From Eledone cirrhosa (taxonomy: Eukaryota), in assembly GCA_964016885.1 (NCBI GenBank), contig OZ024740.1, positions 405,356,001-405,420,000 on the forward strand: a stretch of 64,000 nt of DNA, given 5' to 3'. Below, piece by piece: positions 7,360 to 64,000 of this stretch. Position numbers and translations under genes: made by a program. Below the pieces are notes generated by a model, which was not told the DNA's origin, did no database searches, and saw only the letters and a program-made list of their open reading frames with translations. Each line of letters begins with the position of its first letter. The first letter of the stretch is position 1.

Positions 7360-10300
7360 CATCATCATCAGGTTTAGCGTCCGTGTTCCACGCTTGCATG
7401 GGTTTGGACGGGGGTTTTCCCACTTGAGGCAAGAGTGGTTGTCTTGCTCGCATAGGACTGTCTGGCGGGTTTTCTACAGTTGGATGCCCTTCCTAACACC
7501 AACCACATTTACAGTGTGGGGCTGGGAGGTTTTTACCGTGTTGCCTACACGGCCACATTACAGCGTGGACTGTCTGGCGGGTTTTCTACAGCTGGATGCC
7601 CTTCCTAACACCAACCACATTTACAGTGTGGGGCTGGGAGGTTTTTACTGTGTTGCCTACACGGCCACATTTACAGCGTGGACTGTGTGTTTTTTGTCGT
7701 GACACCTACACGATCTCATTTGTTTCGGCCTGGATGTTGTGGGACCAACATTACTTTACATTGAAAGGGGCGGTGTGGGTGGGGTGGAGGTGGTGGGACG
7801 GGGGTGTGTTTTGATAGAGATGCCTACTGACTGTAGTGGGTTTTTACTTTGTATTTAGGTAAGGCGGGTCTTCTCTATTACTGAGTACCGCCAAAGGTCT
7901 CGGTCCAGTGACATTGTCTTGGAGAGGTGTAAGCGTGTGAGGTCGGAATTTATCAGCTCGTCCCATGTTTTTCTGGGTCTGCCTACTCCGTGGCTACCGT
8001 CTATCTTTATTGCCCTGCACTTTGTTATACAGCTGTCGTCTTTCATGCGCATCACGTGACCGTACCAACGTAGCCTTCTCTCGAGTAAACAACATCTGAT
8101 CCCTCTTATTTCTAATTTTTTCCTTAGTTCGTTTATGCTTTGCCGTTCACGTATATTACTATTGCACATCCAGCGGAGCATGCAAGCTTCGTTCCTCTCT
8201 AGTCTGCGTATATCCTCTGCACACAATGCCCAGGTCTCACTGCCATGCAGCATTGCTGTTCGTATGCAGGCATCGTATAACCTGCCTTTCATTTTTAGGG
8301 AGAACCCTCTAGCGGCTAATAGTGGTATAAGCTCTCTGAACTTTTTCCATCCAGTTCTGACTCTAGCTACTGTACTTTCAGAGCACCCTCCCCCACTGCT
8401 GATTTTGTCACCCAGATAACGGAAGCTGTCCACTATTTCTATAGAACCCTCTGCGCAGTTGAAGGAGCTAGTATTTTGTGGGCACTTGCTGCTACTTATT
8501 GCACCAGAACACCGGCCACATGTAAAATCTATGTTCTTAGTTAGCTTACCTGTGATCCCACTACATCTTTTATGCACCCATACTTTGCATTTGGGACATA
8601 AAATGGAGTTTCTACCTACGCCTTTCCTACACACTGAGCATGGCCATTTCCCAGATGGGACCGCCGCCTTATTTTCTTTCCTACAAACTAGAACTTTAGT
8701 CTTAGCCAGGTTAATTTTAAGGCCTTTTGATTCTAGGCCGTGCTTCCATGTTTGGAATTTCTTCTCTAGTTCGGTCATTGATTCAGCTATGAGCGTTAGA
8801 TCATCTGCGTATAGGAGTTCCCATGGGCAGCCGGTCTTGAACTCCTCTGTTATAGCCTGAAGGGCAATAATAAATAGTAGGGGGCTAAGAACAGAGCCCT
8901 GATGGACACCAACTTTTACGCTAAACTCTTCACTATATTCGTTGTTAATTCTAACCTTACTGACTGTTTCTTTATACATGGCTTGTATAGCTCTCACAAG
9001 CCATTCGTCAACACCTAGTTTTCTAAGAGACCACCAGATAATGGAACGGGGGACTCTGTCGAAGGCTTTCTCCAAGTCGACGAAAGCTAAGTATAGGGGT
9101 TTACTTTTAGCTAGGTACTTCTCCTGTAGTTGTCGTACAATGAAAAGAGCGTCTGTGGTACTTTTGCCTGACACAAACCCGAACTGCATTTCATCTAGAT
9201 CAATTCTCTCTCTGATTAGTTGCGCTATTACTTTTTCCGTGACCTTCATGACCTGGTCGATTAATTTAATGCCTCTATAGTTACTCCTATCTAGGGCATC
9301 TCCTTTTCCCTTATAGCAGTTAACGATGATGCTGCTACGCCAGTCCTTCGGAACAACCCCATTCTGTATGACTTGGTTAACTATCCGGGTGACCATGGTG
9401 TGTCCCACCGAACCAGATGCCTTCAGCATCTCAGCAACTATTTCCGAAGGCCCAGCCGCCTTACCCGTCTTCATATTTTTGATTGCCTTACTTATTATAC
9501 TACCTTCAACTAACACTGCTGGTCCCTCTATTGGATCGATCTGGGGGAGACTGTCTTTCTCCCATTTGTTCTCCTCATTTAGAAGCCTTTCGTAGTGACA
9601 CTTCCAAGCTACCTTCTTATCAGCGTCGGTGATGGCAAGTATGCCATCATCGTTAAGTACACACTTCTCCCCGACAATATCACGGTTATCCTTGACACAT
9701 TGCCTGGCAATCCTGAACACCTCACGTTTTTGGTCCTCACGTTGTAGAACATGCTTGAACTTTCTTTCCTCTGCTTCCCTTCTTGCGAAGTACACTTGTC
9801 TCCTAGCTTCCCTCCTGGCCACTTGATAGTCTTCTCTACTTCCCCCATCCCGCCATACTTTCCAAGCCTGCTTTTTGGCCTTAATTGACTCCTCCACCTT
9901 ACTGTTCCACCACCATGTTACTCTCCTCCTACCTACAGGCCTGCTCCAGCCACAGACTTCGTCTGCCGCCGTCAGCAGGTTTGCTCTCAGGAATTCCCAC
10001 TGTTCCTCTATATTATATGACTCTAATTGCTCTTCCTTACTGTCGAAAGCGTCAAGTAATATGCTTTGAAATTTATTTCTGGCTATGGGGTCCTTTAGCT
10101 TCCATATTTTTCTCCTGAGGATAGTCCTCTTCCGCTGTCTAGTACGTCTCGTCCTGACTATGAGGTCGCTAATTATCAGTCTATGTTGGGAGGTGAATTC
10201 TTCATGAGGGAGGGATTTAGTGTTAACAACAGACACTCTGTCACGTCTTCTGGTAAGGATATAATCTACCTGGCTTGTGTGTTCCCCCGATCTATAGGTG

Positions 10301-11496
10301 ATCAAGTGATTGTCTCGTTTTTTGAAGTTAGTGTTACAGATAGTTAAGTTATTTGCGTCGCAGAATTCCAGGATTCTGGAGCCTTCCTCATTTCTAGTAC
10401 CGAACCCATAGCCTCCATGGATTCCGTCATAACCGTCACAATGTTGTCCAACGTGACCATTTAGGTCGCCTGCAATAACTATATAGTCACTGTCGGTTAT
10501 TTGGGAGGTAGCGAGCATCAGTGTCTCGTAGAATCTGTCTTTTATAGCGCCGGGCAGTCCGGATTGGGGTGCGTACACAGATATTACTGTCACCGTAGTT
10601 TTATTGAGGACAAGTCTTATTTTAATTATTCTGTCGTTCACTCTATTTACGTCTATTATCTTATCTGCCCACTTTTCTGCTACCATGATTCCTACCCCAC
10701 CCAACCCATTGTCATTTCCCACCCAGAAAAGCTTATAGCATCGTTCTTTACCCACGATGAATCTAGCCGACCCTCCCCTCCACCTGGTCTCTTGAATACA
10801 ACAAACATCGACCTCCTTACGTTCAAGCATTTCTACAACCTCGTTAGAGCGACCCTTTAAGGTGCCTACATTCATGGTACCAACTCTGAAGTTTTGGATT
10901 GCGTTTGGAGGGTGGGAGCGGTGGGGCGCGGGGGGGGATGGGGTTATGTTAGCCATCCTGGGCCGAAACAAGGAGGAGTGCTTGCATTCTCGTCCACGAG
11001 GTGAATTTGGCTTTATCTTTGGCATTGTCGCTGAGCGTCCACATTTTTCTCTCTTCAACTCTCCAGAATTCCGTAGTCCATCCATCATATCGAAAAGCAA
11101 CCAGTTAAGCGATAGTATGGGCCTCTGACTTATGATTGGTCCACGTAATAATGGTGGTGCGTGGGGGCGGGTGGGAGGGATGATGAGTTGTTAGCGAGAA
11201 TGTAAGGTTTAAGATAAGATCGCCGTATTTTGGGCATAATTTAACAATAAACGAAAATACAAGATTTGTTTTGTTTAAGAAAATACGATAGAGAAAATGC
11301 GGTGATAGGGAAAATATGATTTTTAGAGAAAAATATGATATAGAATGGTGAAAATATGATATAGTGTGAAATTAGGACATAGAATAGTGATTGAATGAAT
11401 GGGTTCGAATGGAGAGAAGAATCGAGAAAAATATTTGAACGTTACTTTATACCGAAGGAACCGAAGGAAAAGCCATCCCAGAAATAGCGAGTTGGA
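7358..11496 (-). mobile_element. RTE LINE family A, apparently full-length with an intact ORF
   Basis: ~400-bp 5' region, single EN-RT ORF, 3' UTR with a 112-bp tandem duplication, (GAT)n tail; flanked by TA microsatellite on both sides. Confidence 0.93.
7855..11100 (-). CDS. RTE ORF: APE-type endonuclease + reverse transcriptase + embedded PHD (C4HC3) finger
   Basis: GTMNVGT, CCIQETRW, SVYAPQ, AGDLNGH, QVDYIL, SQHR (EN); DLEKAFD, QGSVLSP, YADD, FRYLG (RT). Uninterrupted 1081 codons from a TTG; first ATG at 11088. Confidence 0.95.
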   Translation of the reverse strand: MLFDMMDGLRNSGELKREKCGRSATMPKIKPNSPRGRECKHSSLFRPRMANITPSPPAPHRSHPPNAIQNFRVGTMNVGTLKGRSNEVVEMLERKEVDVCCIQETRWRGGSARFIVGKERCYKLFWVGNDNGLGGVGIMVAEKWADKIIDVNRVNDRIIKIRLVLNKTTVTVISVYAPQSGLPGAIKDRFYETLMLATSQITDSDYIVIAGDLNGHVGQHCDGYDGIHGGYGFGTRNEEGSRILEFCDANNLTICNTNFKKRDNHLITYRSGEHTSQVDYILTRRRDRVSVVNTKSLPHEEFTSQHRLIISDLIVRTRRTRQRKRTILRRKIWKLKDPIARNKFQSILLDAFDSKEEQLESYNIEEQWEFLRANLLTAADEVCGWSRPVGRRRVTWWWNSKVEESIKAKKQAWKVWRDGGSREDYQVARREARRQVYFARREAEERKFKHVLQREDQKREVFRIARQCVKDNRDIVGEKCVLNDDGILAITDADKKVAWKCHYERLLNEENKWEKDSLPQIDPIEGPAVLVEGSIISKAIKNMKTGKAAGPSEIVAEMLKASGSVGHTMVTRIVNQVIQNGVVPKDWRSSIIVNCYKGKGDALDRSNYRGIKLIDQVMKVTEKVIAQLIRERIDLDEMQFGFVSGKSTTDALFIVRQLQEKYLAKSKPLYLAFVDLEKAFDRVPRSIIWWSLRKLGVDEWLVRAIQAMYKETVSKVRINNEYSEEFSVKVGVHQGSVLSPLLFIIALQAITEEFKTGCPWELLYADDLTLIAESMTELEKKFQTWKHGLESKGLKINLAKTKVLVCRKENKAAVPSGKWPCSVCRKGVGRNSILCPKCKVWVHKRCSGITGKLTKNIDFTCGRCSGAISSSKCPQNTSSFNCAEGSIEIVDSFRYLGDKISSGGGCSESTVARVRTGWKKFRELIPLLAARGFSLKMKGRLYDACIRTAMLHGSETWALCAEDIRRLERNEACMLRWMCNSNIRERQSINELRKKLEIRGIRCCLLERRLRWYGHVMRMKDDSCITKCRAIKIDGSHGVGRPRKTWDELINSDLTRLHLSKTMSLDRDLWRYSVIEKTRLT

Positions 11497-15744: not shown

Positions 15745-18332
15745 ATGGGTGGCCGGAACGAAATGAAATCAACTCTAATGATACATTTTAGCAGATAAGG
15801 GAAAAGGGTCTTATCTCTCCAATAGTTCCAAGATGAATGAAGTTGAATAGGTAGAGATAGTAATCCTAGAGAGAGGCATAGGTGTTGAGGTAGCCGGGTT
15901 TGTAGACAATGTCAAATTGATGTTCTGATAGTTCTAAACGCCAGCGAGATATTTTATCATTTTTGATTCGTGATTTATTACTCGAAAAAATGAAGGCTAC
16001 TGATTTTTGGTCAGTCCGTATAATCGTATGAAAACACTTCACGTATTGCAACCATCTTCGTACAGCTTCAATAATAGCCATAGCTTCTCGCTCCACAGTT
16101 GATTGTCTTTTCTCAGACGGTGTAAGTGTTCTCGACAGGAAGGCCACGGGCCGTTCGTTTTGAGAAAGTATAGCTCCGATTGCATCGCCAGACGCATCTG
16201 TTTCTATTACCAATGCGTGGCCAGTTTTAAGAGGAATGCTAAGAGCGGCATTAGAGATATCTGCTTTCATGGCTTGTATTACATCTGTAGCTACTTTATT
16301 CAGCAGAAACGAATCAGCTTGTAATAGTGGTTGGATTTTCTTCGAGTAATCGGCAATCCACCTAGCATTATAGGCTAGGAATCCAAGGAATCGTTTCAGT
16401 TGTTGTTTGTTTGTTGGGATTGGGTAGTCTAGTAGGGTTTTGATGCGTTCCTTATTGGGTTTTTTTACTCCGTTCTGAATGTTATAACCTAGTATAGATA
16501 TACTCGTTTGGCAGATTTTACTCTTATCCGAGTTAAGAGTTAGGTTTTCTGTCTTCACGGCGTTTAAGAATGCTTCCACATTTCTATCATGTTCAGCTTT
16601 GGTATTTCCCGTGACTATGACGTTGTCAATATAGCCATAGGTTTTGAGTAAGTTATATTTCTCTATAATTTGATCCATAATTCTCTGAAAAACAGGTACA
16701 GCGTTAGTCACGCCGAAGGGTAAGCAGCAGAATTGGTAGAGTTTGTGATTAGCCTGAAATGCCGTTAGAGGTTTGTCGATTTTTCTTAAAGGTACTTGGT
16801 GATACGCTGATTTGAGGTCGAATTCTGAAAAATATTTATCCTGTACCACTTTGTTAACAACATCCTCAATGTCGGGGGATGGATAGGCATCCAATTGTGT
16901 ATACTTATTAATTGTCTGGGAGTAGTCTACCACGAGTCGAGGTTTCTTTCCGTGTACTATGAAGCACTGAGCTCGCCAAGGTGAAATTGATTCCTCAATG
17001 ATACCGGCTTCTAGGAGGCGAGTTATTTCGGACTTAATAAAATTGTCGTCTCTCTTGTTAATGAAACGTCCCTTAGTGGCAATCGGCTTGATATTTGTCT
17101 CGGCTAAATCGTGGAAGACAAGAGGTGGATTAACTTCTATTGTCGGAAAAGTACGGCATAGTTGATTTGAAAATTTCATGGGAGGCCGGGCACCGCCAAG
17201 GTGGAGAATAATAGAGCTATGCTGAGTGAGGACATCCATTCCGATAATGACGTCTGCGACAAGACTTTTTGCAGTGATTAGGTTCACAGAGTATTCCTCA
17301 CTGTAGATACATATTGGTATGGATGTAGTACCAGTCGTCATTAATATTTTATTATCGGCTAGTGTGATTGCCCGCCTTTTCTTGTTTTACGCTCAAGTTT
17401 AATTCAGTTGCTATGCTATGACGTATAAACGAATCTGTGGAACCAGGATCGATTAAGGCCTTTAGTGTGGTGTCTTTTATAGTTATCGGGCAGAGAATAG
17501 CTTTAGACTGTTTGCCGGTATTTAATGAACATATAAGTGAGGCTGCTTGCTTACTGCTTTGGCAGTCAGATTTACAGACTGATTGCCAGTGGCCGATCTT
17601 CCCACAAGAATAGCATATGTCTTTTCTAGCTGGGCATTTATTTCTAGGATGCCTAGAAAGTCCACAAAAAAAGCATTTAAATTCACTTTGAGAATTAGCA
17701 TTTTTCAAGTATTTCAGAAGAGGTTGTTTTGATTTTGTAGCTGCTACGGTAGGTTCTTAAGAGGATGTAGTTGACAGTGTTGATGAATTCAGAGAGACGT
17801 CTAGGTTGAATGATTTAGTAAAATCACTGGATAGTTCTATTGCATTTGCCATTGCTATGCAGTCTTTTAGGTTTGCTTGAGTATTGTCCAGCTCTAGGAG
17901 ACGTGCTCGTATAGCGTCTGATTAGACTCCTGCTACTAGTGAATCCAGGATCAACATATCTCTGTGGTCTTTAGCTGTGATGGCTTTACAGTTACATTTT
18001 TCCACTAAAAGGTTGAGTCTTTTAATAAACTCTCGGACGGTTTCTTCTTGCTTTTGGCAGCATGTTAGGAGTTGATGTCTGGCATAGAGTATACGACTGG
18101 GGGCTAAGAATTGAGTATCCAGGGTGATTAGTGCTTCATTGAAGTTTTCTGTAGATTCGAGTAAACCAAATAGGTCGGCCCCAGCTTGTGAACGAAGGTA
18201 GGTCAATTTATGGTTGTCCTCTGCTATGCCGTTTATGAGTAGGGAATCCACAAAACACTTCCGCCACCATCGCCATTGCTCGGATGTGGGGTCATTTGGG
18301 AATGTTGGATGTGGAATTTTTAATTGAGCCAT
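15745..18332 (-). pseudogene. Ty3/Gypsy gag-pol (gag, zinc knuckle, protease, RT, RNase H, start of integrase), disrupted
   Basis: CYSCGKIGHWQSVC knuckle, ALIDPGS protease, VDYSQTIN/DLKSAYHQ/LPFG/YIDN RT, ETDASG..EREA..TDQK RNase H; breaks off near the integrase HH motif at the RTE-B 5' end. Confidence 0.92.
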
Positions 18333-35261: not shown

Positions 35262-38200
35262 AAGCAGAGGTCACCTAAGGGCTGCCTGTCCTCAATTGAC
35301 AAAAAAAAAAAACACTTTTACCAACACCACAAATAACAACACAACCACCACCACCACCACCACGACAAGAAAAAACAACAGAGAACAATATTCCACCCAA
35401 CTCCTCCCCACCCAAAACAAACACAAAAACACACACAGACACTACAGAACCCCAAAACATACCCCTATCCATCAACACGGATGAGGAACCCCTATCGACG
35501 GCACCCAGCAGCGATGAGGAGGAACCCTTCCAATCCGTGAAAAGAATAAAAAGAAAGAACCGCATGAACAAAAACGAAACAAACACACAAACACCAGCAC
35601 AAACAGCACAAAAATCACAAACAAAAGTTCTCCCTCCCGAAAACAAAACACCCACAACAAAGAGAAAACACATCCAGGAACCACAGACAAAAACAAACAC
35701 AACACAGGAAAAGTACACATACACTTACATAAACGAAGAAAATAGAACACTGATGGAGACCATCAGAAACAACCCTTTGGTCAAAACCGAAGGGAAAACT
35801 TTGGATAGCTCCAACAAAAACAAAAAAATGAACCTAAAACTGATCAGGGTCCCTATAGGAACTTATAGATCTCTAAAAGAAACATTTGTAGAGGACGTGG
35901 GGAATTCCTGCGTGAAACCAATCAACCGCGTCCTCTACAAAGGCCTCCCCATCACAAGCACCCCCACCCAAGTCATCCCCACCCCACCAGACACCCCTTC
36001 CCCACCAAACACCTCCGTCCCCACCCCGCCAGAAACCACCACCCCACTCAACAACCCATCCCCCACCCTCATGGAAATTGTGCAACCCGATACCCGGGAC
36101 GCAGAGAAGTAAGTGCCTTTTCTCTTCACCACCAACATGGCTATGCTAAGAGTAGGCTGTTTAAATGCGCGTGGCCTGGGCTCAACTTGGAAGCAAGCAA
36201 TGCTTCTAAATGACCTCAGGTCACAACGTATAGATGTGATGGTTATTTGCGAGGCCCGGATCAGCAAAGTGCGACAGCTGGCCCCCACCTTTGATGACTT
36301 TGAGATGCACGCATCTCTCTGTCAGCCCGGAGGTGGGGGTGGGGTTGTCGTTCTGCTGCAAAAACATCTGGGTCTCGCAACACAGATGGTACATTTGGAC
36401 CCGGAGGGTCGACTAGTGGTTCTGGACCTTGGCAGTGGTGAAGGCGGAGCGTTTAGGTTGGTAGCCGCCTACGGCCCTTTCGGGTCAATGCGGCCGGACT
36501 TCTTCCATCGTCTGGAGACTTTTCTAGGGACGTCCCGCTCCTTGCTATTAGTGGGGGACTGGAATGGTATCCTAGATGCACGCTGGGATTACGTAGGGGC
36601 CTGTCCCGATAGAGAGGGGTGCAATAGCCTCAAAGGGTTAATCGGTCGATTTGACCTGGCCGATAGATATCGACTAGATTTTCCGACTGCGCCAACCTGG
36701 ACTTGGGCAAATCGTAGCGGATCATCTAGGTCGTACCTAGATAGGTTCTTAGTTAGAATTAAGGATAAGGACTTTTTAAGTTGTCCAAAAATGCGCATGG
36801 TTGGCTATTCAGACCACAAGTTAGTGACCTGCATGGTCAACCTTGACAGAACTCATAGACAGGGACCCGGTTACTGGAAGCTCAACTTGTCCTTACCGGC
36901 AAGTAAGGCTTACAGGAACCGGATTAGCACTTTAGTTAAGGAGCGGTTGACGGGCGCCATCATCAACAGCAGGTGGTGGGGATCTCTCAAAAGAGAGATT
37001 AGAGTAGTCTCTATAGAATTTAGTAAGGAGTTAGCCTCTAATAGAAACAGAAAGGAAAGGAAGTTGGTAGATAGTGGAGAAGAGGCAATTAGAAGTGGCG
37101 ACGTGGCCAGAGTGCTAGCGTCGAGAACGGCCCTGGGCCAGTTCTTCAACGCGAAACACGAAGGCTGCATCGTCCGAAGCAAAATACGTGCTCTGGGAAA
37201 TGAGGGGACCAAAGCTGTTAGCTGGGCCCGCATGACAGAAGCCAAAAGAGGGAGCAGATCCACTATCCGGTCTTTGCGAGACCAGGATGGACGGGTGATC
37301 CTTGAGCCTAAGCAGATGTGCGAGGCTTTTCAAAAGCACTTTGCCGGATTGTTCGGAAGGGGCGGGGGGCCGGTTGAGGATGTGGACTTCGGTCCATACC
37401 TCGACGGCCTGCCGCATCTCTCGGACAGGGAGGCGAAGTCCTGGGAGGAGCCGATTTCAGCTGCTGAGATAGAGGACGTGCTGAGCCAATGCGGCAAACG
37501 CAAATCCCTGGGTCTCGATGGTCTTCCATACGAACAATATCTAGCTATGCCGGACTTGTTCCCCGATCTCCTCAAGGCGGTCTACTGCAACTGGCAACAG
37601 AACGGGAGAATTCCCTGTGCTGTGACCAAGGGCGTAGTCACGCTAGTGAGGAAGGACGAGAACAAGGGGTACGATATAAATAATTTCAGGCCCATAACTC
37701 TGCTAAATACAGAGTTACAGATTTTGGCCAAGATGCTAGCAAAGAGGTTGGCGCTTGTCGTGGGCAACCTGGTGGGAGATGCGCAGACATGTGCTATCCC
37801 GTCCAGGTCCATCCACGACAACCTCCACCTCATGCAATACATCATAGAGAGGGTTGGGAACGAACCAGGCTTTGGTGGGGCCCTGATCAACTTGGATCAA
37901 TCTAAGGCATTCGATAGGGTCGACCATGGTTACCTGGATGCAGTGCTAGCGGTGGCAGGCTTCGGGGCTGGATCAATGCCATGCACAGCAGCCGCATCTG
38001 CTCTAGGGTCAAGGTGAACGGCTACCTCTCGGAGACGTTCGAAATTGCGCGGTCCATCCGACAGGGGTGCCCTCTCTCCTCCCTTCTGTATGTAATGACT
38101 CTAGAGCCACTGCTGCGGAAGTTGGAGTTGTTGCAGGGCATCCCGTTGGAACCGGGATTGCGGAAAGCGGTGTCAGCCTACGCCGATGACGTAACAGTAA

Positions 38201-50973: not shown

Positions 50974-51112
50974 TTAATAAAATATTCTGTAGATGTTTCG
51001 ATGCCTATGGTACGATTTTCCAATCACATGAAAAATTACTTGAAATAACTTGGGAAATTTGTTGAAAAAATAATTGAAAGGTTCGCCGAGGATATCTTTG
51101 ATTTCTTGACTC
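50974..51112 (-). CDS. IRE1/RNase L-like kinase-KEN gene, terminal coding exon
   Basis: tttag|G SQEIKDILGEPFNYFFNKFPKLFQVIFHVIGKSYHRHRNIYRIFY*; matches the KEN C-terminal LG.P..YF...FP.L pattern; phase fits the preceding exon. Confidence 0.88.
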
Positions 51113-51346
51113 CTAAATATATTAAAGATTGTTTTTGTTTTGTTTTTTTAAAGAAAAAGATATTATAATATTAATACGACAATACATAATCAGGAGAGGG
51201 AAGGGACAACCAAGTTGGGTCCCCTAGGAATATACACAAAAATAATACAGTATCAAGTCAAATCAATATAAAAAAATTGTTTTATCAAACACATGATGTT
51301 TTTTTTTTTTTTAGAGGTTTAGTATTTTTTTACAAAAAAGAAATAT

Positions 51347-51532
51347 AATAATTGTTTCTACTTTTGGCACAAGGCCAGCAATTATCCCAGTGTATTACTG
51401 GTACTTTATTTTATCGACCCCGTAAGGATGAAAGGCAAAGTTAACCTCGGCAGGATTTGAACGCAGACCATAAAGGGTCGTAACTCTTTGCTGCAAAGCA
51501 TGGCGTCTGACCCTCTATGGATACTGCCAATA
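51347..51532 (-). mobile_element. Deu-like SINE (intronic)
   Basis: Reverse complement of 25158-25355. Confidence 0.8.
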
Positions 51533-51789
51533 ATATAATACTTACAGAACGAAAGCACAAACAAATATAATATAAAGGAAAGGGGCAAACCCATAGCCAG
51601 GTTTTCTGCCAGGTAATGCCATTCGAATATATGTTAAAACATGGGCATGCCAAAACAAAATAAAGAAATATTGTTTAGTAAAATATATAAATAAAATCTT
51701 GTTTGATGGGGATGCCAAAACTAAATTTGCTTTTGATAGTGGATGCCGGGCATCCCCTGGCATCCCCTTGGCTACGAGCCTGGAAAGGG

Positions 51790-52140
51790 GAAAACAAAAA
51801 AGAAAGAGAAAAGAAAAAACACATAAGTGGGTAGCACACATATCTGGGACCACATACTACAAAAGGCAGGTGAAAGGGGTAGACAATGGAGCCGCTACCA
51901 GGGTAAAAGATAACAGTATCACGAGGAGCACTGGGAAACCTCTCTAATGAATCAGCACGCTTGCAGCTTTACCTCGGGTGATGGCAAGGCTGATGCACTG
52001 GAACAACCAAGCGTCCTTACGAGCTTCACCAGTTACCTCTGTTAGGTGAACCGCCAGTGAAGATGAAAATCTTGCAGTCAGTAGCCCGACTCGCCCAAAC
52101 ATCTCGAACACCACAGGCTGGAAAATGTAGTTGGCCAACA
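51790..52140 (-). mobile_element. CRE-like element 3' end (RLE C-terminus + UTR)
   Basis: YIFQPVVFEMFG...WLFQCISLAITRGKAASV, homologous to the end of the 60454-61134 ORF. Confidence 0.75.
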
Positions 52141-53759
52141 GATCACGGTATTTTAACAGATATTTATCATGAAATACAGAGTTATGGTACCAGCATATTT
52201 ACAAAAGAGCATATTTTAACAATATCCTGGCTGACATTCTTTCTAATCAGCCCTGATAACTACTTCAACTAACTAGTTGGGTCAAAACTTCAAATGCAGT
52301 AATAAAAAGTTAAATAAACATACACAAACAAACAAAAATTTTGAAATGGAATGTAATAACTAGATCTACATTGAGTTTGATTGCTTTTTTGGCAATTTTG
52401 TTCCTTAATTTCAACTCTTCTTTCATTTTCCTTTCCTTCCAATATATTCCAACAACTAAACAGAGCTTAACCTAATAAAAACGTGTTAACTATTCCAACA
52501 TTACATGTACAAAGCATAGAAGCTCAGTACATGCTCTTTAAATTATGCTTTATTTCTATTTTTATAAATTGCATTTACATATTTTTTCTTACTGGAACTA
52601 AATAATTACATACACACAAAAACACATATGCATACACACACATACAAATAAGAGATAGTCATACATGCATATAAATAAATAAATATATCCTAGTACCAGA
52701 AAAGTAGAGAGTGAATGGTGAATTAGTAGTTCATAGAGTTGTGAAAACTAAGAAACAGGCCTGAAAAGAGTAGAGGAGTTAGGGAGGGAAGTAAAGGATA
52801 CTACTAACAGTTATCTAGAAGAGAAGTTAGATATCAAGTATATACAACAAGTAGGGAAGTTAAAAGTAAGAAGTTTGTCAGTGTTCTAGACTGTGAGGTG
52901 TTAGAAGTATGAGGGTACCAGATTGCAAGGCAATGTGTCAGTTAAAACCAGGACAATTTGGAAGAAACATTCTTACAGTATGATAGTAGTGCATTTGCCC
53001 TGACTGACACTGAGAAGAAAAATGATGGAAATAATACTACAAGTTGATGGAAAGAATGTGTGGAAAAAGAGCAGCTACCCTAAGTGGATTCAGCAGAAAG
53101 ATCAGCTACTGAGTGTGACTATTATATGGAAGAAAGGGCCATTAACGCTTTTGTTCTCATGTTTCTGATTAAAGACACTGCCTATGATTTTGGAAATAAA
53201 AATTTGGAGGGATTCAATAATATAACTAACTTTCATTAAGTTCTTACATAAAATTATGATGGGAGGTTTATAGATGAATATGAATACCTTAAAACAAAAC
53301 TATTATCATAGAATTAGGGGCAATTTCAGGTGGTTTGGTATCAAAAGGGTTATGGATAAGAAAGCAAGGAAAACAGCTTGATAATTACTGAGAGACATAT
53401 GATCATTACTTTGCATAGTCAATGATGAAGTGGATGGAGATGTTATCCCCATGCTTGGCATGGCAGCATCCTTAACTGCTACAAGGGTGAATAAAATTCC
53501 TTAGGGAGAAATAACTAGAGACATTAAACTAATGGATTAAGGCATAAAAATGACAAAGAGAGTTGTAACAATTTTATATGAACAATGCAGTCTTAACAAC
53601 AGAAATGGTTAGTGAATTATGAATTTCTACAATCAGTGCTGGTAACTATTGCTATAGATGAACCTCTGTCAGTTCCAGTAATAAGTGTTCCAGTTGTTTG
53701 ATTAACAAAGCAGCCCATTCATGAAATTAATGTGCAAGTGGCTGAGCATTCCACACACA

Positions 53760-53977
53760 TGTACACAGAGTAATTCTCAAGGAGATTCAGCATGACACAG
53801 TGTGTGTGACAAGGTTGGTCCTTTGAATTACAGGTATAACTTATTTTTGCCAGCTTAGTGAACTGAAGTAACATGAAATAAAGTTTCTTTTTCAAGGACA
53901 GTGTGTCATTGGGGATCGAACTAATGACCTTACAATCATTAGATTAACACCCTAACCATGAAGCGATGTGTCTTCAT
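53760..53977 (-). mobile_element. tRNA/CORE-like SINE
   Basis: Reverse complement resembles the 23486 head and CORE-like body; another copy at ~56830-57098. Confidence 0.6.
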
Positions 53978-54317
53978 ACTACTACTATAAACACTCTTGT
54001 AAACTACTATTGTCACAGTTTGTCAGTAGATGTCAATGGAACTGTACTGTAAATGAATTAAAACTTGATTTAAATTGACCTTCGTGTTGAGTTATTTACA
54101 TTTGAATTAAATTCACAAAAGTTACAATAGCCAGTGTGGAATGTGGACTATGACCTGTGTTACTGTCAGCTACAGAGGCTTCATGAAACATTGATTGCTT
54201 GTTTTTGTTAGGTATAAAACTACAAAGAACTAGACTGAAAAGAATTTAAATCAGAGAGAATTGTGTTGAAAACAATGATAAAGACTGAAATAAATCATAT
54301 ATATAAACAACACTTAC

Positions 54318-54433
54318 ATTTGCTTATACAAAATACATGTGTTGTATAAAAAGATCACCAGTTCAATGATTGAATTCCTTATTGGTCTGATTTTCTGTAA
54401 TTCTTGTAAGATAATCTTGTCAATGAATGACAT
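54318..54433 (-). CDS. IRE1/RNase L-like gene, exon (KEN core)
   Basis: tttcag|MSFIDKIILQELQKIRPIRNSIIELVIFLYNTCILYKQ+AT|gtaagt; 116 nt, phase 0 to 2. Confidence 0.88.
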
Positions 54434-56096
54434 CTGAAAAGGTTATATTTGAATAACTAATATTAATTATTTAAAACTGATACTATTTTGTAAAGAAAAC
54501 ATATGGCAATTTGAAGTTATCCAAATATAACTTCTAGAATTTATTTTTAAATCCAATAAGGGGGAAAAGCAAAATCCACCCTAAAAGGTTTTGAACTTGA
54601 AACAATAAGCTACTGAATTTGTTTAAATCACAGTAACTAGTATAATGCTTCTCTGATATAGCCACCTACACATATTTAAACATTTAAATACAGTGTTTAT
54701 TATAATTCTTATCTTTTACCCAGAGCTAAATTAAGTTCAGAAATAAATCTGGTTTTAATTAAAAGTTGGTGTAGACATTTTTTCCTGATTTTATCTATGA
54801 TGACAGGCTTATTAATAAATTTTTCCTATCAATAAATTTCACTAAATTTATTAACATATGTTGTTGGTTTTTTCTTTTATAGTTTAATTAATCACTAATT
54901 GTCAATGATTTCAGTAGCAGAATTGGACAATATCTAGTTCAAAACAAGAAGCACAATTCTTTTTTACACAAATCCTTTGCTGGTAAATACAGACAACACA
55001 ATAGCAGTAGTGTGGTCTGTTTTCTTTGCTGAGATAATACTTCATATTTCATTTGCTTTGATAGGATGCTCTAATTCAAAGACAACTGCCCTTCTATATG
55101 TTAAAGAGTTCTTCAATGTTATGTCTTTGGAATGCCGCTAAGCACGTTGTCCGCTAAGCATGTTGTTCAACACTCTACCGATTCTGCCTTGGTAACTTAC
55201 AATGAATTAAGTCCATTGTCAGTAATCAATATTTGATGAGGAAATTTAACATCTGAAAATTGATTCTAATTTGAACTCACCATAATGCTTTCTAACAATA
55301 TCTCCAAGAGGTCTGCAAGGTCTGCTGAATAAGACCTGATTTAGGATTACATAGCAACCACCTAGAGACATCTGGTGATATACTGGAGAGTTAGCTATCT
55401 TACCATGCTGGCACCAAGTGTTGTATATAGGTAGTCACATGCTAATCACACATATAGTCAGTCCCTGTGCCAGGTTGGGTGCTCAGAAGAAGACTTCAGA
55501 ACATTCTAGCTCTCTAATTCAAGGAACATATTTTTACAAACTATATTTTCTAAATCTAAAGGTGCACCATTGGAAACTGTGGGGTGGGGTAGTACAGGAT
55601 GATCTCATACCCAGTGACTAGTGTGGAAGCATCATTGTCAACTGCTATAGGTGCACTAGATAAAAAAACAAACTACAGAAGTATTAAGATGATTAACCAT
55701 GTCATTAAAGTTACTGAAAGGGTTATAGCACAACTGCTTGGTTTGCATATTTTTCACATTTTGCATATAAGATTGTATATCATCATCATCATTATTTTTA
55801 TGTTGGCATTTCCGTGCTAGCATGGGTTGGATGAGACTGTTTGAGATAATGTTTTACAGCTGAATGCTCTTCCTCACATCAATCCTTTTAGTCCCTTCTT
55901 ATGAAATGCAGGGATAATCGATTATTATTCTTAACCATATACACACAGAGATCCATATACACACAGAGATCCAGATACACTCCAAACATATATTGATATA
56001 ACATAACATATGATGAACTTTGAATGATACACATACACATTTAATACATCACATAATTGCACAAATATGGCCTATAAATAAAGGATGAAAGCTTAC

Positions 56097-56166
56097 CCAA
56101 TTCTTAAAATATCCAATTGTGTCACAAATACTTAGACAGTATAAGATGCTGCCTTCTGTGGTGTAG
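56097..56166 (-). CDS. IRE1/RNase L-like gene, exon
   Basis: aag|C YTTEGSILYCLSICDTIGYFKNW|gtaagc; alternative in-frame acceptor would start the exon at 56172; phase 2 to 0. Confidence 0.75.
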
Positions 56167-56537
56167 CTTTTCCTCATTAAAAAATATAAAAAATATCCAT
56201 GTATATTAACTTCAAAACATTTTGATACAATGGAAATTACTTTACAGTGTCAGTAAGTTACTAGAAAGAATTTCAAACAAACTCTAACATTACTATTTCA
56301 AGTTTTAAGTTCAGTATAACAGCAAAAGAGAGAAAAGATGAAAAGTTACAGCAGTTATAGGATCAAATCTTTCAATAGATATCCATAATCCATGAGACTG
56401 TGACTTTTAGATAAGATGCATTACTTGCCTCACTCTATGTAACTAGAAAGTCTATATTGGTATCATTTCAAGATAGAAATGACATTGAACTCTTAAGCAG
56501 TTATTCCAATAATATCTTATAAGATGGTATAAAATAA

Positions 56538-56720
56538 TATAATTGTTTCTACTTTTGGCACAAGGCCAGCAATTACCCAGTGCATTACTGGTACTTTATT
56601 TTATCGATCCCGTAAGGATGAAAGGCAAAGTTAACCTCGGCTGGATTTGAACTCAGAATGGCAAGGACCGTAACTCTATGCGTCAAAGCATGGCGTCCGA
56701 CCCTCTACCGATACTGCCAT
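56538..56720 (-). mobile_element. Deu-like SINE (intronic)
   Basis: Reverse complement of 25158-25355. Confidence 0.8.
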
Positions 56721-57532
56721 AATATAATGAGTGACTCAACTAGATAAACCATATCATCATGGTTAATTCAATTCCTGTTATCATCAACACAATCATTGAT
56801 TTATTAATCAAACATATTAAAGTTAAAGTCTGTCCCAAGTCCAGAGGCTCATCAGACCAGAGTTTATCTGAATTTCATTGGTATTAAACAACCAAGAGTG
56901 CATGACTTCTCTCTAGATAGGACACCTGTTTGTCACAAAGCTAACCATCATAGGCTGCTATTGGTACTCCTTTAATACAGTTAAGTGCACTGAAATGAAG
57001 TGTCTTGCTTAAGGACATGGGCCACCCAGTTTAGGAATCAAACCTACATCCTTAAGAATGATGGTCCAACATTCTAACCACTAGACCATGCACCTTCATA
57101 TCACCATGGTTAATTTAATTCCTATCATCATCAACATCATTGATGTTCATGTTCAACAATATTAAAGTTCAAACCTGTCCCAAGTCCAGAAGTTCATTAA
57201 ACTAAACAGTAGGTGGTCTGGGCTTGACATTACTGAACTTTCAGCTTTTTGTTGTTTAATTCAAGGTCAACTATGGTCAAGCAGACCTATGATTAAAGAT
57301 ATTCCAACTATGACCATCCCCTCTTTTTATTTTTTTAGACATAGGTTATCTAGAACTACATTATCAAATGCATCCTCTTGTCAATATGATGATAGTGTAG
57401 GCTGTTGAAAAACATGGCTGTTGAGAAAACCCACAACTTTCAGATTCAAAAATGCCAACATAAGAACAACACAAGTTATCCTGTGCTGACTTACTTTCCC
57501 TAACTCTTCTTTTGCTGAAATGATTTTATCTT

Positions 57533-57744
57533 TAACCCTTTAGCATTTAAATTACTTTATATTTACTATTGTATTTTCATGGTAAACACTTTATTTCACA
57601 TAATTATCTCATAATATCTCATATTATTTATTTTGTGAACAATACCTTAACATCAGTATAAGTGTTCAGTTATGGCCGGTTTGAACAGAAAGACATAAGC
57701 GCATTCTGGCCGGATATGGCCGGTTTAGATGCTAATGGGTTAAA
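57533..57744. mobile_element. piggyBac-like MITE
   Basis: ttaa-ccctttagcat ... atgctaatggg-ttaa. Confidence 0.6.
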
Positions 57745-58056
57745 TATTAATGACTAAGATAACATTCCAACGTCTTTGTTATTATTTTTAACATTTAATG
57801 TCCTATTTATATTGCTGTAACCCTCTGATAAAACACTATTTTCTACATTTTCCACACAGTTTCAAGCAAACTACAACACCCTCTTATGGCTATTATTTCT
57901 AGTACGTCAAAGAGTCATCTAAAGGTTTTTCATTGATTTGTTGTTCAGTGTCCTATCAACTAAGCCTTATATACTCCCAGTCTTATAATTATTGATATTA
58001 TTTCAGAAAATGGAAAATAATGGCTGGTTGATTCAAATAGAACTACATCCACTTAC

Positions 58057-58140
58057 TGTAATATCAAAGCATTTAGTATATCACTTCCAACAGTTAACAA
58101 GAACTGAAGTTTCCGCTGATTTGACCAAAAGTAAGGATGC
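58057..58140 (-). CDS. IRE1/RNase L-like gene, exon (kinase end / KEN start)
   Basis: aatag|G HPYFWSNQRKLQFLLTVGSDILNALIL+CA|gtaagt; matches the IRE1 HPFFW...LQF...VSD pattern; phase 2 to 2. Confidence 0.9.
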
Positions 58141-59406
58141 CTATTTAAAAAGAAAACATAATGAAAGTACTTTACAGAATATACAAGCAGTGCCTAGTAG
58201 TGTTACTTTTCTGTATATTGTCATGAAGTTTTAGTTATATATTTATCAGTATCATCATCATTTAACATCCATTTTCCATCCTAGCAAGGGTTGGACAGGT
58301 CTTCACAGACCAAGTCAGTACTCAAGCAGGGCTACTGACCTCTCAGATGGGCTAGGGACCCATGTCTTGCTTACATACAACCCTAACAAGTACATTTTAT
58401 CAAAACACCAGTACTAGGGAGATTTTCATGTCTTTGACACAACTGAAGAGTCCTCCCAACCCTTTGTTTGTCAAGCTTTTTATGGCTGGATGCCTTTCCT
58501 ATCACTAACCAATTTACAGCATGTACTAGGTGTGTTTATCATGTAGATCACCAATGCTAATCTCCAAGTTTAACAAAACAACATACTCAATAACTAAAGG
58601 TCCATAACTTGGCTTTCTACAACCTACAAAAGCTTAACTGCAATATCGCAGAGATTGAGTAAACACCTGGAAAAAAAAATGTTTCCAGAAGAGAATAAAG
58701 GATGCTGCAAAAATCAATCAGTTACTGATCAACAAAGCCATAACTGAAGACTACAGAGAGAAATAACAATCTTACATTGGCATGGATTGACTATGAGAAA
58801 GCCTGTTAAAGTGTTTCAGACATGTGAATCTTGTAAACACTAAAGATGGTTTCACACATATCATGAGTGGTAAACAATTCTGCTGATACAGACAACAGAG
58901 GGGGCTATAACATCTCACCCTACTCTAATCTCTTTTTATAATTCCTAAAGCTTTTATATTTATAGGATTGCTTTAGTTTTCAAACTTCACATTTTCCAGC
59001 AAAGCAGTCTATCACATAAGTAGTTGAGCAAGAATGACATTTTCATGAAAAAATATTCACTGATTAGGCAATTTAAAATAATGACATTGAAAAGTTTCAT
59101 AGGGATACTTTCTACCTGATAAATATATAGTTAAATGCAGGCTAACATAATTTAGTGTATATATAATATATATGTTTATCTGTATTAGTAAGTTTTCTGC
59201 CAAATTTTCGATTGAGTGGTTAGCACACAAAAACTACCTATGCTAAGATAGAATAGATATGAAACAGTAAAGAAAAAAAGCTCAATTTGTCTTGAAGTAT
59301 GAAATAGGTTTCCTTTACAAATTAAATATCAAATTACCAAATGAGACTAAACATAATCTAAGAGATTACAGTCTCTTTAACTTCAGAGTAAATGAACATT
59401 ACATAC

Positions 59407-59600
59407 TTTAATACTTCATTTGCAGTTGGTCTTTCATCAGGAACTGCTGACAACATCATTGTTATAATGTCACTTGCTTCCAAACTTAGATTGCATAGCT
59501 GCTTTTCATGTAAGATGATATTCAGTGGTATTTCTGAAGAAGTTTTACCAAATGGGTGATGGCCTCCACTTAGTATGAAATAGGCAACCATTCCAGCAAC
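59407..59600 (-). CDS. IRE1/RNase L-like gene, exon (kinase subdomains IX-XI)
   Basis: gtag|VAGMVAYFILSGGHHPFG...MMLSAVPDERPTANEVL+AA|gtatgt; 194 nt. Confidence 0.92.
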
Positions 59601-59699
59601 CTACATAATCAATATAATGATTATAACACCTGGGTAAATTTTGTAATTTATATGTGTGTATGTTAGTTGCTTTCTTTTTTGTTTTATGTTGTTTTTTTT

Positions 59700-59955
59700 A
59701 TTATCATTGTTTGCCCATGGAGAGAAGGGCAATGCCCGTGATATTTTCAGGGCCTTTGAGACTTATTGAGTTGTGGTGCACCTGGGCACTGTACACAATA
59801 TTTCATTATTGTTATCATTATTATATCATGACTCATACACTGTTCATTTTCCTGACATTTGTACATTATTCTATGTACTATACATGCACCTTTGATGAGT
59901 TGTAGTGCACCTGAGCACTGTACACAATAATTTCATTATTATTATTATATATTAT
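59700..59955 (+). mobile_element. CR1 3' UTR fragment
   Basis: gagttgtagtgcacctgagcactgtacacaataatttcattatt terminus, partly duplicated. Confidence 0.75.
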
Positions 59956-60453
59956 TTTGAATACTTGCAACAGAGTAGACTCTGCTAAAGGAAACCAAAA
60001 GTCAGGTGGAGGTGGTGATGGTAAACAGGGCAACAAATTAAATCTACCATCCAAGTAGATGACAGCAGGATTTGAATTCAGAATTCAAAGAGCCACAACA
60101 AATACCACAAGGCACCTAATTTGAGGCTCTAACAACTCTATTAGTTATTATCATGAATGTAGTACTGATTACTAAACTACCTACTGAATAGATAGAAATG
60201 GAGTTAACATTCCACATCTGGAGTAGGCTTATAACAAGCTTGGCATAGACCATCTTATAGCAAGTAATAAAAAGAAAGAACAGAATGAATTCTCTTAATT
60301 AACATCTGAAAAAGCCATAAACATCATTCAGTTTTATTTTCTTTCATTGAATTTCACAATCACAATCAAAATACATACCTCATCATATATCTCCCTATAA
60401 CTGTATTTTAATTATCTAATTAACATTTGTGAGGGAGGCATTTACGACCATAC

Positions 60454-62280
60454 TTAAATATGGAATGATACACGATGGAGCCCCTCCATAGCCCCGGCGG
60501 TCAGAATGGAGAAGGCGTTTCTCTGGAGGACGGCAAGGGAGACGCGCTGGAAAAGCCACCCCAAGTCGCGAGGCTCACACCTACGGCTGGCCAGCTCAGC
60601 GTCTATGGTGGTGAACAGGGAGGTAGCCCTAGGGCCAAGGACACCAGAAGTTTCCACTGCCAGGGGTACAGCCGCAAACCTGTCGGAGAGCAACCAGTAT
60701 TTGAGGAGTTTAGCCTCCTCAGCCCTACGTGCAGCAGAACCCGGGTTAGTCGCAGACTGCACCAAGTTGCGGCTGCAGAAAGTGTCGGTGTAAGTGGCAT
60801 CCCAGACGAGGGGTTTGCCACCGCAGAATGGGAAGATGGTCATGCCATCTGGCCTTTTGCCTTCCCCTCGGTCCAGCCCCACCGGCTCGAGCTGGGAAGG
60901 GAAGCCCACAGCGTCCAAGCCATGCTTCATGACCTCGTTGAGGGCAGCATGGCGTGGAAGGCGGCCGGCACTGTGGAGACAGGAAAGCGGGTGGAGGACA
61001 AAAGAGTCCACAGTGGATCCGTAGTGACATTGGTGTGGCTCGCGTGAGCCTGTCTGAAGCCAAGCTGAACTGGATGGCATCCCAAGTGCTTTGGGGGAAC
61101 TTGACGTCGACAGGGGGAGAAGGAGGAGGAACATCTACTGGACTAAGTCCCAGCCAGTCCCACGTCTCACAGGTGGCCTCACGTTCTCTGAACACAGAGG
61201 ATTCTATTGTGTTTAAAAGAACCCTGCTGATGAGTACGCGGCACAAGGTTACCGACGAAAGAATCGCAGGCAGAGCCAGTGAGATCGGGGACGGAGGCCA
61301 AGGCCGCCATACCTGACAGGTAAAGTGGCCTGTTGCCATCCAATGTCATTAAACTTGACGTTGCATATCTCCTCGGCTGGTGCTTGAATACAAGTATTGA
61401 GGTCAGTGAGGAGAGATGTGTGGGTGTAGCACAGAGCGCTGCCAAGGGTATAGAGGAGCTTCAGCATAGCGAAGCAGTTCTTCAAACAGAAAGAGGGCTG
61501 GGTGGCCGTTGATCAGGCCCAGTCGGCTCATGCGAGTCTGGAGTTGTTGAAGCCTAAACCTGATGGTGGAGCAGATAGCCGGTGGGTGGATTGGTGACCC
61601 AAGGATGAGGACATCCTTTTTGGGGTTCATCTGTACCTGGTGGAGAATGGACCGCACGTCCGAGATGGAGGCTGCAAAGTTCTCAGCATCGTGGCTGACA
61701 TTCACCACCTCCGACTTGGCCAAGTTGACCTGGAGGCCAATTCCCACCAGGGCAGGAACCATCGATTGTAGGTCATGGCAGACAGTCGGTACGGGCCCGC
61801 TCAATGTAGTATCATCCAGATACCAAACATTGAGAGGGGCCGTGATACTACGGGCGATGTGGTCTATACCAAGGGCAAACAGGAGGGGACCCAAAGGGTC
61901 GCCCTGTTGGACCCCAGTGGCCGAAGGTATGACCGTATCAGCACCAAGGAGCATGCTCGGGGCTCCATACGACAGGTAGGCCAGCTGGTAGGCAGAGGGG
62001 GCTCGGCTGAGGCAGGCATCAAGCAGATGGTCCCGGCATAAGCAGTTGAAGGCATTCCTCATGTCAAGCTTGACAATGAGATGCCTAGAGTCCCTGGATG
62101 CCGGTTCCGGTGGGCAGCTGTTGAAGAACTGCCTGGTTGCATGTGCGGCCCCCTCACAGCCACTGGACACGCTGACACCCAGTTGCACCGGACTGAACTC
62201 CTCACCCAGTCTGGGTGTTATGGACCTGCAGACCGCCTTGTCAGCCAGCCTCTGGAAGACATTGCCCACAGTGATTTTGT
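60454..62280 (-). mobile_element. CRE-like non-LTR retrotransposon (RT + restriction-like endonuclease), frameshifted, intronic
   Basis: KLDMRNAFN, GVQQGDPLGPLLF, WYLDD, LPVRYGGLGL, RHAALN, KRPDG..WDAT.TDT..E.AK..KY; GC-rich relative to flanks. Confidence 0.88.
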
Positions 62281-62347
62281 ATATCATGGTTTGAAAATAT
62301 GTATGTATATGTTACAGGGTTTACCATATAACATATACTATATATAA

Positions 62348-62568
62348 TGGTTTCTGTTTTAGGAACAAGGCCAATCATTTTTTGGTAGTGGTAAGTTGAA
62401 TAAATCAGCCTCAGTGCATTACTGGTGCTTTATTTTATCGACCCAGTAAGGATGAAAGGCAAAGTTAACCTCGACAGTATTTGAATTCAGAATGTAAAGG
62501 GGCGTATTTAATATATGCTGCAAAGCATGTTGTTCGACGCTCTACCGATTACTGTCAATCTACCAATA
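62348..62568 (-). mobile_element. Deu-like SINE
   Basis: Reverse complement of 25158-25355. Confidence 0.75.
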
Positions 62569-63019
62569 TAATGAGTGATGATTGTAGAGCAGCAGAGAAG
62601 GCTGAGAAGAACAAAAATGTAAATAGTTCAGTGGATGAATAAAGTATCACTCACTGAATTGCATTGCATGATGGGAATTGAAAGAGTGAGGGGTGTTATG
62701 ACAGGGAAAGGAATGAGATATTGGAGTCATGTGTTAAGGAAGGATGAAAGTGACTGGATGAGAAGAGCAATGGAAATTAATATGGAAGAAAGAGAGAATG
62801 AGGAAAACCAAGAAAGACATGGATAAAGATGCTAGAGGAGGAAATATAAGTTAGTGAGAGATGTAGATGATAGGACAAAATGGAAAAGCTTGCTATGGGG
62901 CTTGCAACTCTAACTCCTCCTTTAGCAAGGAAGATAACCTTAACAAACTGCTTCTTGTCATACAGTCACTCCAATACATAGAATTTCTATGAAAGCCATT
63001 ATAATAGACTACCACTTAC

Positions 63020-63099
63020 CTGTATATCAGATTTGATTGAAAACTTTTGGCCGTCGCATGATCGAAGAAACTCTGATGGCTGCCAACATTTCTGATTAT
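63020..63099 (-). CDS. IRE1/RNase L-like gene, exon (kinase subdomain VIII-IX)
   Basis: ttccag|AT NQKCWQPSEFLRSCDGQKFSIKSDIQ|gtaagt; joins the next exon to give SDIQVAGM. Upstream exons were not found in the window. Confidence 0.88.
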
Positions 63100-63810
63100 C
63101 TGGAATGAATAATAAAATACAATCTATAAATTGTGATATAAACAATAATTTGTTTTTCTATATGTTAGAAAGTGGGAATGTTTCAAGTGAGAGGTGTTAA
63201 AAGTTTCAACCAATTCCCTTGAAATACTCAATAATATTGTGTCTTTGTCACTCACATCAATCAATTCTCTTGTAGATATCAAGAGTCTATGGGAATGCAA
63301 CACCCTATAGAAAGCTTGTTACTACTATAAATGGTTTCAAAATAAGTATGTATACATGTGTGTGTGTGTGCATATGAATATATGTATATGTGTGTGCATA
63401 TGTATATATATATATAATATGCATATATATATGTGTGCATATGTATATACATATATATGTGTGTGTTTACACATATATGTATGCATATGTATACATGTAT
63501 GCATGTATTGACTACTCTACAATTGTAGCCATTACTCAGAAATTTATGCCAGTTTGTAACACATTTGTTCACAACATTTGTAAGGTGGCATGTATCTTAA
63601 ACTTTCTTTCTATAGACATGTCTATGTTTGTTTACATTCAGCCCAGTAGGCTTTCATTTTGCTGTTTTAGTTTGCATTGTATAACTTATTCTTATACTGG
63701 TATTTAAATACGATACGTTCTTTTAATTATTTATTAAATTGGATTGCTGAGTTAAAATGTCGTATTTCTCAGTGGTGTACAGTTGACATTTTTTTGCTCT
63801 GCTTATGTCT

Positions 63811-63820
63811 GTTGCTACTG

Positions 63821-63851
<31 letters not shown>

Positions 63852-63853
63852 AC
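63811..63853. repeat. (CTA)n microsatellite
   Basis: Directly visible. Confidence 0.9.
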
Positions 63854-64000
63854 CATTGATGTTTTTGTTAGTGTTTTTGATATTGTTTATAAATAGCTTC
63901 AAGCAACTCAACTTGAGCAAACCTCTGGCATATTGGTAGCCAATTGAATAGGTGTTTAATATCCCAAAATTCAACAAAACTAAATGTTGTACAGTGTTAT

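Follow-up and report, generated by a model that had tools for sequence, protein, structure and literature searches.

The animal nucleases with a KEN domain (PF06479, Ribonuc_2-5A) that have been studied are IRE1 and the RNase L of vertebrates. In yeast Ire1, His1061 and Tyr1043 are described as the acid-base pair of the RNase, and Arg1056 and Asn1057 as the residues that hold the phosphate; exchanging the histidine for asparagine was reported to lower the rate at least 3x10^5-fold, and exchanging the tyrosine for phenylalanine tenfold (PMC3149027). For the KEN motif, a conservation of 95% is listed, some of the proteins being fused to ankyrins; activity is reported to need both the Arg and the His, and for HEPN domains lacking the motif a role in RNA binding has been proposed (Anantharaman et al. 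2013, PMC3710099). RNase L itself, for which nine ankyrin repeats are described (PMC5927464), was placed by Chu et al. 2023 (as their clade B) in jawed vertebrates, with functional OAS-RNase L coupling only there; several non-RNase L proteins also carry ankyrin repeats according to the same study, probably through independent gains (PMC10400998). The gene described here lies on the minus strand of contig OZ024740.1 of the octopus Eledone cirrhosa, with its 3′ end between positions 405,356,001 and 405,420,000 (the window, 64,000 nucleotides; all coordinates are window positions 1-64000, continued past 64000). The gene is real, conserved, and unstudied, and its octopus form is an RNase L-shaped double pseudoenzyme, that is, a protein in which both the kinase and the RNase site have lost catalytic residues. 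Full-text searches, with subscription journals outside their coverage, retrieved neither a study of it nor a paper containing its gene identifiers.

Within the window, the gene is represented by six minus-strand exons with AG acceptors and GT donors. Once joined, they form a frame that stays open until its stop at 50974; the remaining two frames of the joined exons contain 15 stops each. This part of the sequence-only reading, including all quoted peptides (CWQPSE for the GW.APE segment, IRPI for FRTY, and YNTCIL for RNxxxH), was reproduced in full.

63020..63099, minus strand: exon 15 of 20, from the end of the kinase activation segment (CWQPSE) to the start of helix F (SDIQ).
59407..59600, minus strand: exon 16, kinase C-lobe (VAGM...GHHPFG...RPTA).
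58057..58140, minus strand: exon 17, transition from kinase to KEN (HPYFW) and the first helix of KEN.
56097..56172, minus strand: exon 18, KEN helix 2 up to the conserved Trp; the acceptor is weak, yet the orthologue agrees with it.
54318..54433, minus strand: exon 19, degenerate RNase site.
50974..51112, minus strand: exon 20, final KEN helices and stop codon.
63100..64000 within the window, minus strand: intron 14 (1,892 bases), which runs out of the window toward exon 14.

Exon 20 by itself matched PF06479 with an E value of 0.001, below the cut-off. All six exons align exon by exon with the annotated Octopus bimaculoides protein XP_014775694 (62-93% identity over tblastn segments, intron overhang included), and because this protein also passes the Pfam cut-offs, the splice is not a product of chance. 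At the exon 15 acceptor (63099), a second AG lies 8 bases inside the exon (63091). One isoform model of Octopus sinensis (P0007) terminates in exon 15 in a shifted frame, which removes the kinase C-lobe and KEN, and further isoform models terminate just inside or within KEN.

The six-exon gene of the sequence-only reading is only the part that the window covers; upstream, past base 64000, a further 14 exons follow. When 200 kb of upstream sequence was taken and exon boundaries were searched for under the guidance of the O. bimaculoides protein, the latter mapped exon by exon to the first 60 kb. The resulting model comprises 20 exons (5,616 nt, 1,871 amino acids, no internal stops), and extends ∼60 kb beyond the window; of its introns, 18 are of the GT-AG type and one is GC-AG.

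123712-92041, minus strand: exons 1-6, start codon and ankyrin repeats.
89741-83695, minus strand: exons 7-9, helical domain.
78353-73622, minus strand: exons 10-11, linker.
70892-64992, minus strand: exons 12-14, kinase N-lobe and catalytic loop (AVK, HGRLE, SNYG).

The encoded protein thus begins with ∼5 ankyrin repeats of a generic kind, followed by a predicted ARM-type solenoid, a basic helix, a linker of ∼900 residues that is of low complexity and rich in disorder-promoting residues, a pseudokinase, and KEN; ∼1,150 residues separate the ankyrins from the kinase. The upstream exons supplied the ankyrin repeats and the kinase motifs (AVK, HGR, and NYG), but neither a signal peptide nor a luminal domain nor a transmembrane helix: the first 40 residues are basic, the N-terminus is ankyrin, and the best 19-residue hydropathy window reaches 1.65, within the helical domain (Mytilus, 1.24; Littorina, 1.35). 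Such low maxima predict a soluble protein. Pfam recognized ankyrin repeats, kinase, and Ribonuc_2-5A on orthologues; for the latter, scores were 32.8 bits in O. bimaculoides, 34.2 in Sepia, 46.0 in Mytilus, and 46.1 in Littorina (cut-off 23.3), and the O. bimaculoides orthologue (isoform P0002) exceeded the Pkinase cut-off as well. The KEN domain of the window is identical to that of this orthologue at 117/131 positions; the corresponding values are 148/167 for the ankyrin part, 237/250 for the helical domain, 275/292 for the kinase, and 617/885 for the linker. The folded domains (89-95%) are therefore more constrained than the linker (70%), with identity serving as a proxy and not as dN/dS. 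Within the linker, exon 11 encodes tandem hexapeptide repeats (of the VTQDLG/VTQNVG type) that vary by species and are longer here than in O. bimaculoides. A pseudogene was considered and rejected, the 20-exon frame being intact and the orthologues conserved.

The solenoid was modeled on the region following the ankyrins in the Mytilus orthologue (3-row alignment), which was predicted to form a helical solenoid with a long terminal helix (predicted local distance difference test [pLDDT] 75, predicted template modeling score 0.73). The top structural match was CNOT9 (Z 13.9, root mean square deviation [rmsd] 4.0, 191 residues aligned), followed by beta-catenin (Z 13.7, rmsd 8.3, 184 aligned) and a V-ATPase chain (Z 13.5, rmsd 3.1, 169 aligned). 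As none of these ARM-type matches is outstanding, they point to a fold class only and not to a function. For the helical domain, Foldseek returned no match at E<=0.001 and the ESM Atlas nothing over 0.76. The model of the kinase-KEN module (3-row alignment) was poor, with a mean pLDDT of 43.7 (61-71 in the KEN part); its top Foldseek rows were all IRE1 (E 6e-5, TM score 0.2), and a second look at the fold through VIA gave no Z >=5 among 988 chains.

Of the motifs that characterize an active kinase such as IRE1, the octopus protein retains AVK, but HRD reads HGR and DFG reads NYG. This loss is common to the family, which was counted as the 16/29 proteins carrying the motif SDIQVAGM (10 species, isoforms included): the catalytic Asp is absent in 16/16 (HGR, HGN, or HGS for HRD), and the DFG Asp is absent in 7/7 aligned rows (NYG, EYS, or GYG). 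In the aligned rows, the glycine loop has degenerated, and only cephalopods keep the beta3 Lys. With both the catalytic-loop Asp and the DFG Asp gone, the domain is a pseudokinase.

The RNase site was read in a register set by alignment to yeast Ire1 and to the canonical IRE1 of the octopus, and its codons lie in exon 19.

54382-54380, minus strand: equivalent of Tyr1043, Ile.
54346-54344, minus strand: equivalent of Arg1056, Tyr.
54343-54341, minus strand: equivalent of Asn1057, Asn.
54331-54329, minus strand: equivalent of His1061, Leu.

The absence of the canonical Arg, His, and Tyr from the octopus site was hence borne out at the level of codons. Among the family proteins that reach the KEN site, Tyr-Asn stands for Arg-Asn in 14/14, so that the Arg is always replaced and the Asn always kept. 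The catalytic His, however, is present in 7/7 mussel and periwinkle proteins and in 0/7 cephalopod proteins, its position being occupied by Leu in all octopus sequences and by Arg in Sepia. The upstream Tyr was lost only in octopus and is present in mussel and periwinkle. The site thus appears to have decayed in two steps, the exchange of Arg for Tyr common to all molluscs of the family and the subsequent loss of His in cephalopods. At the RNA-recognition loop positions the octopus protein keeps Lys and Arg, which, together with the Asn, would fit the holding of RNA without demonstrating it. Taken together, the octopus protein is with high probability able neither to phosphorylate nor to cut RNA.

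How the site is conserved differs between lineages. Between Mytilus and Littorina, no 30-residue window anywhere in the protein is conserved as well as the site (26/30; runner-up 22/30), which speaks for a functional site in these two lineages. Between Octopus and Sepia, only 9/28 residues of the site segment are identical (KEN, 43/133; kinase C-lobe, 105/178), but between this genome and O. bimaculoides 27/28 are. The site has therefore been strongly constrained in bivalves and gastropods, remodeled in cephalopods, and conserved again among octopods. The designation as a pseudo-nuclease in the sequence-only reading is accordingly secure in cephalopods alone, since in the mussel and periwinkle proteins His, Asn, and Tyr are all retained and the site is very strongly conserved. 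The family as a whole may still hold a nuclease, whereas its octopus member is very likely a dead one; that the mussel and periwinkle proteins cleave RNA is conceivable, although we lean against it. A variant nuclease in which Tyr takes the place of the HEPN Arg, and with which the octopus protein would still cut RNA via other residues, draws on the same Mytilus-Littorina conservation, but the His position shows no common replacement in Octopus and Sepia and the reported need for both Arg and His speaks against it, which makes activity of the octopus protein very unlikely. The cephalopod KEN could also be a remnant with a purely structural part, capping the C-lobe of the pseudokinase, and function would then lie in the ankyrin, ARM, and pseudokinase parts. 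The low Octopus-Sepia identity of KEN and its site relative to the kinase C-lobe would fit such a remnant, as would the helical domain being the most conserved part among octopods and the predicted isoforms that stop before or skip the site; given that KEN (117/131) and the site (27/28) are well conserved between this genome and O. bimaculoides, against 70% in the linker, we consider it unlikely.

The closest solved relative of the kinase-KEN module is IRE1 (137 bits, E 5e-39). A canonical IRE1 is encoded elsewhere: a genome-wide six-frame search gave its sole PF06479 match (1 match among 5 candidates) on another contig (C20), and the locus at 27362282-27385443 of that contig has the glycine loop, VAVK, HRD, DFG, GWIAPE, and the upstream Tyr, with RNK closing one exon and HY opening the following one; its upstream exons are luminal and transmembrane in appearance (hydrophobic helix). 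By these motifs, it is the canonical IRE1 of the octopus with intact kinase and RNase. The gene in the window is therefore a paralogue, as had been proposed, and not canonical IRE1; a search of the genome with exon 16 found only the window locus (1 match among 2 candidates, a lower bound). The mollusc protein further differs from IRE1 in that the luminal domain and transmembrane helix are missing, HRD, DFG, and RNxxxH are broken, and the introns lie mostly elsewhere (at most 1/9 kinase-KEN introns is near an IRE1 intron position). With a canonical IRE1 in the same genome, the protein might act as its regulator, joining IRE1 oligomers via kinase-KEN and damping or boosting the unfolded-protein response, and IRE1beta is reported to suppress IRE1alpha without needing its own enzymatic activities (PMC7041686). 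However, a membrane anchor is lacking and only 16/82 residues of the kinase N-lobe are identical to octopus IRE1. Moreover, a His-dead Ire1 subunit is reported to first activate the wild type in trans ∼tenfold (PMC3149027), so that a dead subunit need not be dominant negative. Regulation of IRE1 is thus quite improbable.

Orthologues were found in three Octopus species, Sepia, five Mytilus species, and Littorina. A one-exon query with 18 candidates gave three protein clusters (Octopus vulgaris, O. bimaculoides, and Sepia pharaonis), and two more searches added four Mytilus clusters (6 matches among 1,458 candidates), with M. coruscus present as a cluster member, and Littorina saxatilis (9 matches among 4,161). 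In the O. bimaculoides cluster, LOC106873009 is represented by six isoform models and O. sinensis LOC118762493 by three, each of them annotated as “uncharacterized”; the model of O. vulgaris was given an IRE2 name automatically. Considering how RefSeq models arise, several isoform models usually imply transcript support. Three sequencing runs considered as a source of expression data behave as genomic contigs crossing introns and stem from one sample. The full architecture is present in Mytilus edulis, M. trossulus, and Littorina, and some of the remaining entries represent partial models.

In all three trees (17, 12, and 13 rows; near-duplicate Mytilus rows and isoforms omitted, RNase L absent, branches long), the mollusc proteins form one clade with 100/100 support. 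Outgroup-rooted trees separate them from canonical IRE1, the AU test of a joint clade being borderline (p = 0.049, with one IRE1 row). Among metagenomes, 33/381 pattern matches encode a relative; of 12 loci translated, five are kinase-KEN proteins and none belongs to the mollusc family. For viral relatives, none of 12 pattern matches was confirmed. The five metagenome loci (L030-L034) share the helix-F motif SDIQVAGM (in variant form in the second domain of L033 and in Xenia), have essentially intact catalytic motifs, and resemble the Xenia protein XP_046843824. This group is sister to the mollusc clade with kinase outgroups (95/93 and 84/89); without outgroups, support is 59/19. These cnidarian-type soluble “IRE1-like” proteins resemble the mollusc family in the helix-F motif, but differ from it in keeping the glycine loop, DFG, HRD (HRN in L033), and RNxxxH, and no ankyrin-ARM front end was seen in them. 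In the Atlas, the nearest clusters consist of kinase-KEN proteins from chordates and plants with the label “IRE1-like.” Kinase-KEN proteins that look active also occur in other combinations: L033 encodes one with WD40 and tandem kinases, the Xenia protein has tandem kinase-KEN units, and P0018 (1,802 amino acids) has a very long ankyrin array with intact HRD, DFG, and RNxxxH, another RNase L-like layout.

With RNase L, the mollusc protein shares solubility, the order of ankyrin, pseudokinase, and KEN (PF06479), and a profile match (PDB 4o1o, E 1e-24). It differs in having ∼5 instead of nine ankyrin repeats, in the predicted ARM domain and ∼900-residue linker inserted behind them, and in the RNase site, where Arg is replaced in all members and the catalytic His is lost in cephalopods. 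The 2-5A-binding residues of RNase L, which 2-5A activates, lie in its repeats 2, 4, and 9. Human RNase L aligns to residues 1522-1896 of the Mytilus protein, and the ankyrins match generic ankyrin-1/2 best; they were probably gained independently of RNase L, and the mollusc gene may be among the ankyrin-bearing proteins noted by Chu et al. 2023. The resemblance to RNase L is one of layout only, and membership in RNase L or IRE1 is not shown. A decoy or sensor in an invertebrate OAS/RNase L-like antiviral pathway would be in keeping with the domain order and with the alignment of human RNase L. A single genome copy (as a lower bound) and 89-95% identity of the folded domains are, however, unlike a fast-evolving immune family, the few generic ankyrins lie far from the kinase, and functional OAS-RNase L coupling is reported for jawed vertebrates only. 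Such a role is also quite improbable. A search of the genome for OAS1_C gave no matches, but no positive control matched either. Altogether, no result obtained here supports the decoy, dominant-negative, or antiviral roles suggested earlier.

The intron between exons 15 and 16 contains, on the strand of the gene (60457-62311, minus), a GC-rich fragmented retroelement, likely non-LTR (long terminal repeat), with a reverse-transcriptase match (PF00078, E 1e-9) and a high copy number by read depth. In window positions 1-50000, no long host-gene open reading frame (ORF) was recognized; long AT-rich microsatellites occur there, as do the following elements.

7858-11190, minus strand: long interspersed nuclear element (LINE) ORF with endonuclease, reverse transcriptase, and PHD finger.
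36113-38014, plus strand: LINE ORF.
15869-17386, minus strand: LTR-type pol fragment with protease, reverse transcriptase, and RNase H.

The reading preferred here, to which a probability of roughly 0.55 is assigned, is that the octopus protein is a soluble non-catalytic scaffold, the kinase-KEN module of which serves as a dimerizing surface for binding RNA or a partner. The ankyrin and predicted ARM repeats would recruit protein partners, the pseudokinase-KEN unit would pair back to back by analogy with IRE1 and RNase L, and the KEN cleft, with its Asn and the two basic residues of the RNA-recognition loop, would hold RNA rather than cut it. Before the divergence of bivalves, gastropods, and cephalopods, a gene for a soluble kinase-KEN protein would have acquired the ankyrin and ARM repeats, and its kinase would have become inactive; the His would have been lost later, in cephalopods. 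Several observations weigh against this scaffold. The Octopus-Sepia identity of the site equals the average of KEN, so that across cephalopods the cleft does not stand out as specially constrained; the ARM assignment, made on the Mytilus orthologue, is generic; the poor kinase-KEN model leaves room, on structural grounds, for substitute catalytic residues; and the O. vulgaris model and one O. sinensis model are without the KEN site exons. A bolder version would have molluscs independently build an RNase L-shaped protein, the mussel and snail form acting as a functional HEPN nuclease, or as an RNA sensor, through a new site signature devoid of Arg (Tyr-Asn-Cys-Cys-Leu-His), switched via the ankyrin-ARM sensor and the pseudokinase, and the form in cephalopods, the transcripts of which are heavily edited, being a non-cutting RNA sensor; this we regard as doubtful.

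To the two kinds of KEN nuclease studied in animals, IRE1 and vertebrate RNase L, the mollusc family adds a further architecture in three classes, one that converges on the layout of RNase L. Set beside IRE1, the family shows a natural series at one active site: intact (IRE1), lacking Arg but with His (mussel and periwinkle), and lacking His (cuttlefish and octopus). This series allows direct tests of whether a HEPN site stays functional once its Arg is gone, and of which role a kinase-KEN module has when neither enzyme is active. A survey of Aplysia reports OAS and RNase L to be absent, and with them an OAS-RNase L axis (PMC9334734). The family is a candidate for RNA-level stress or antiviral signaling in molluscs.

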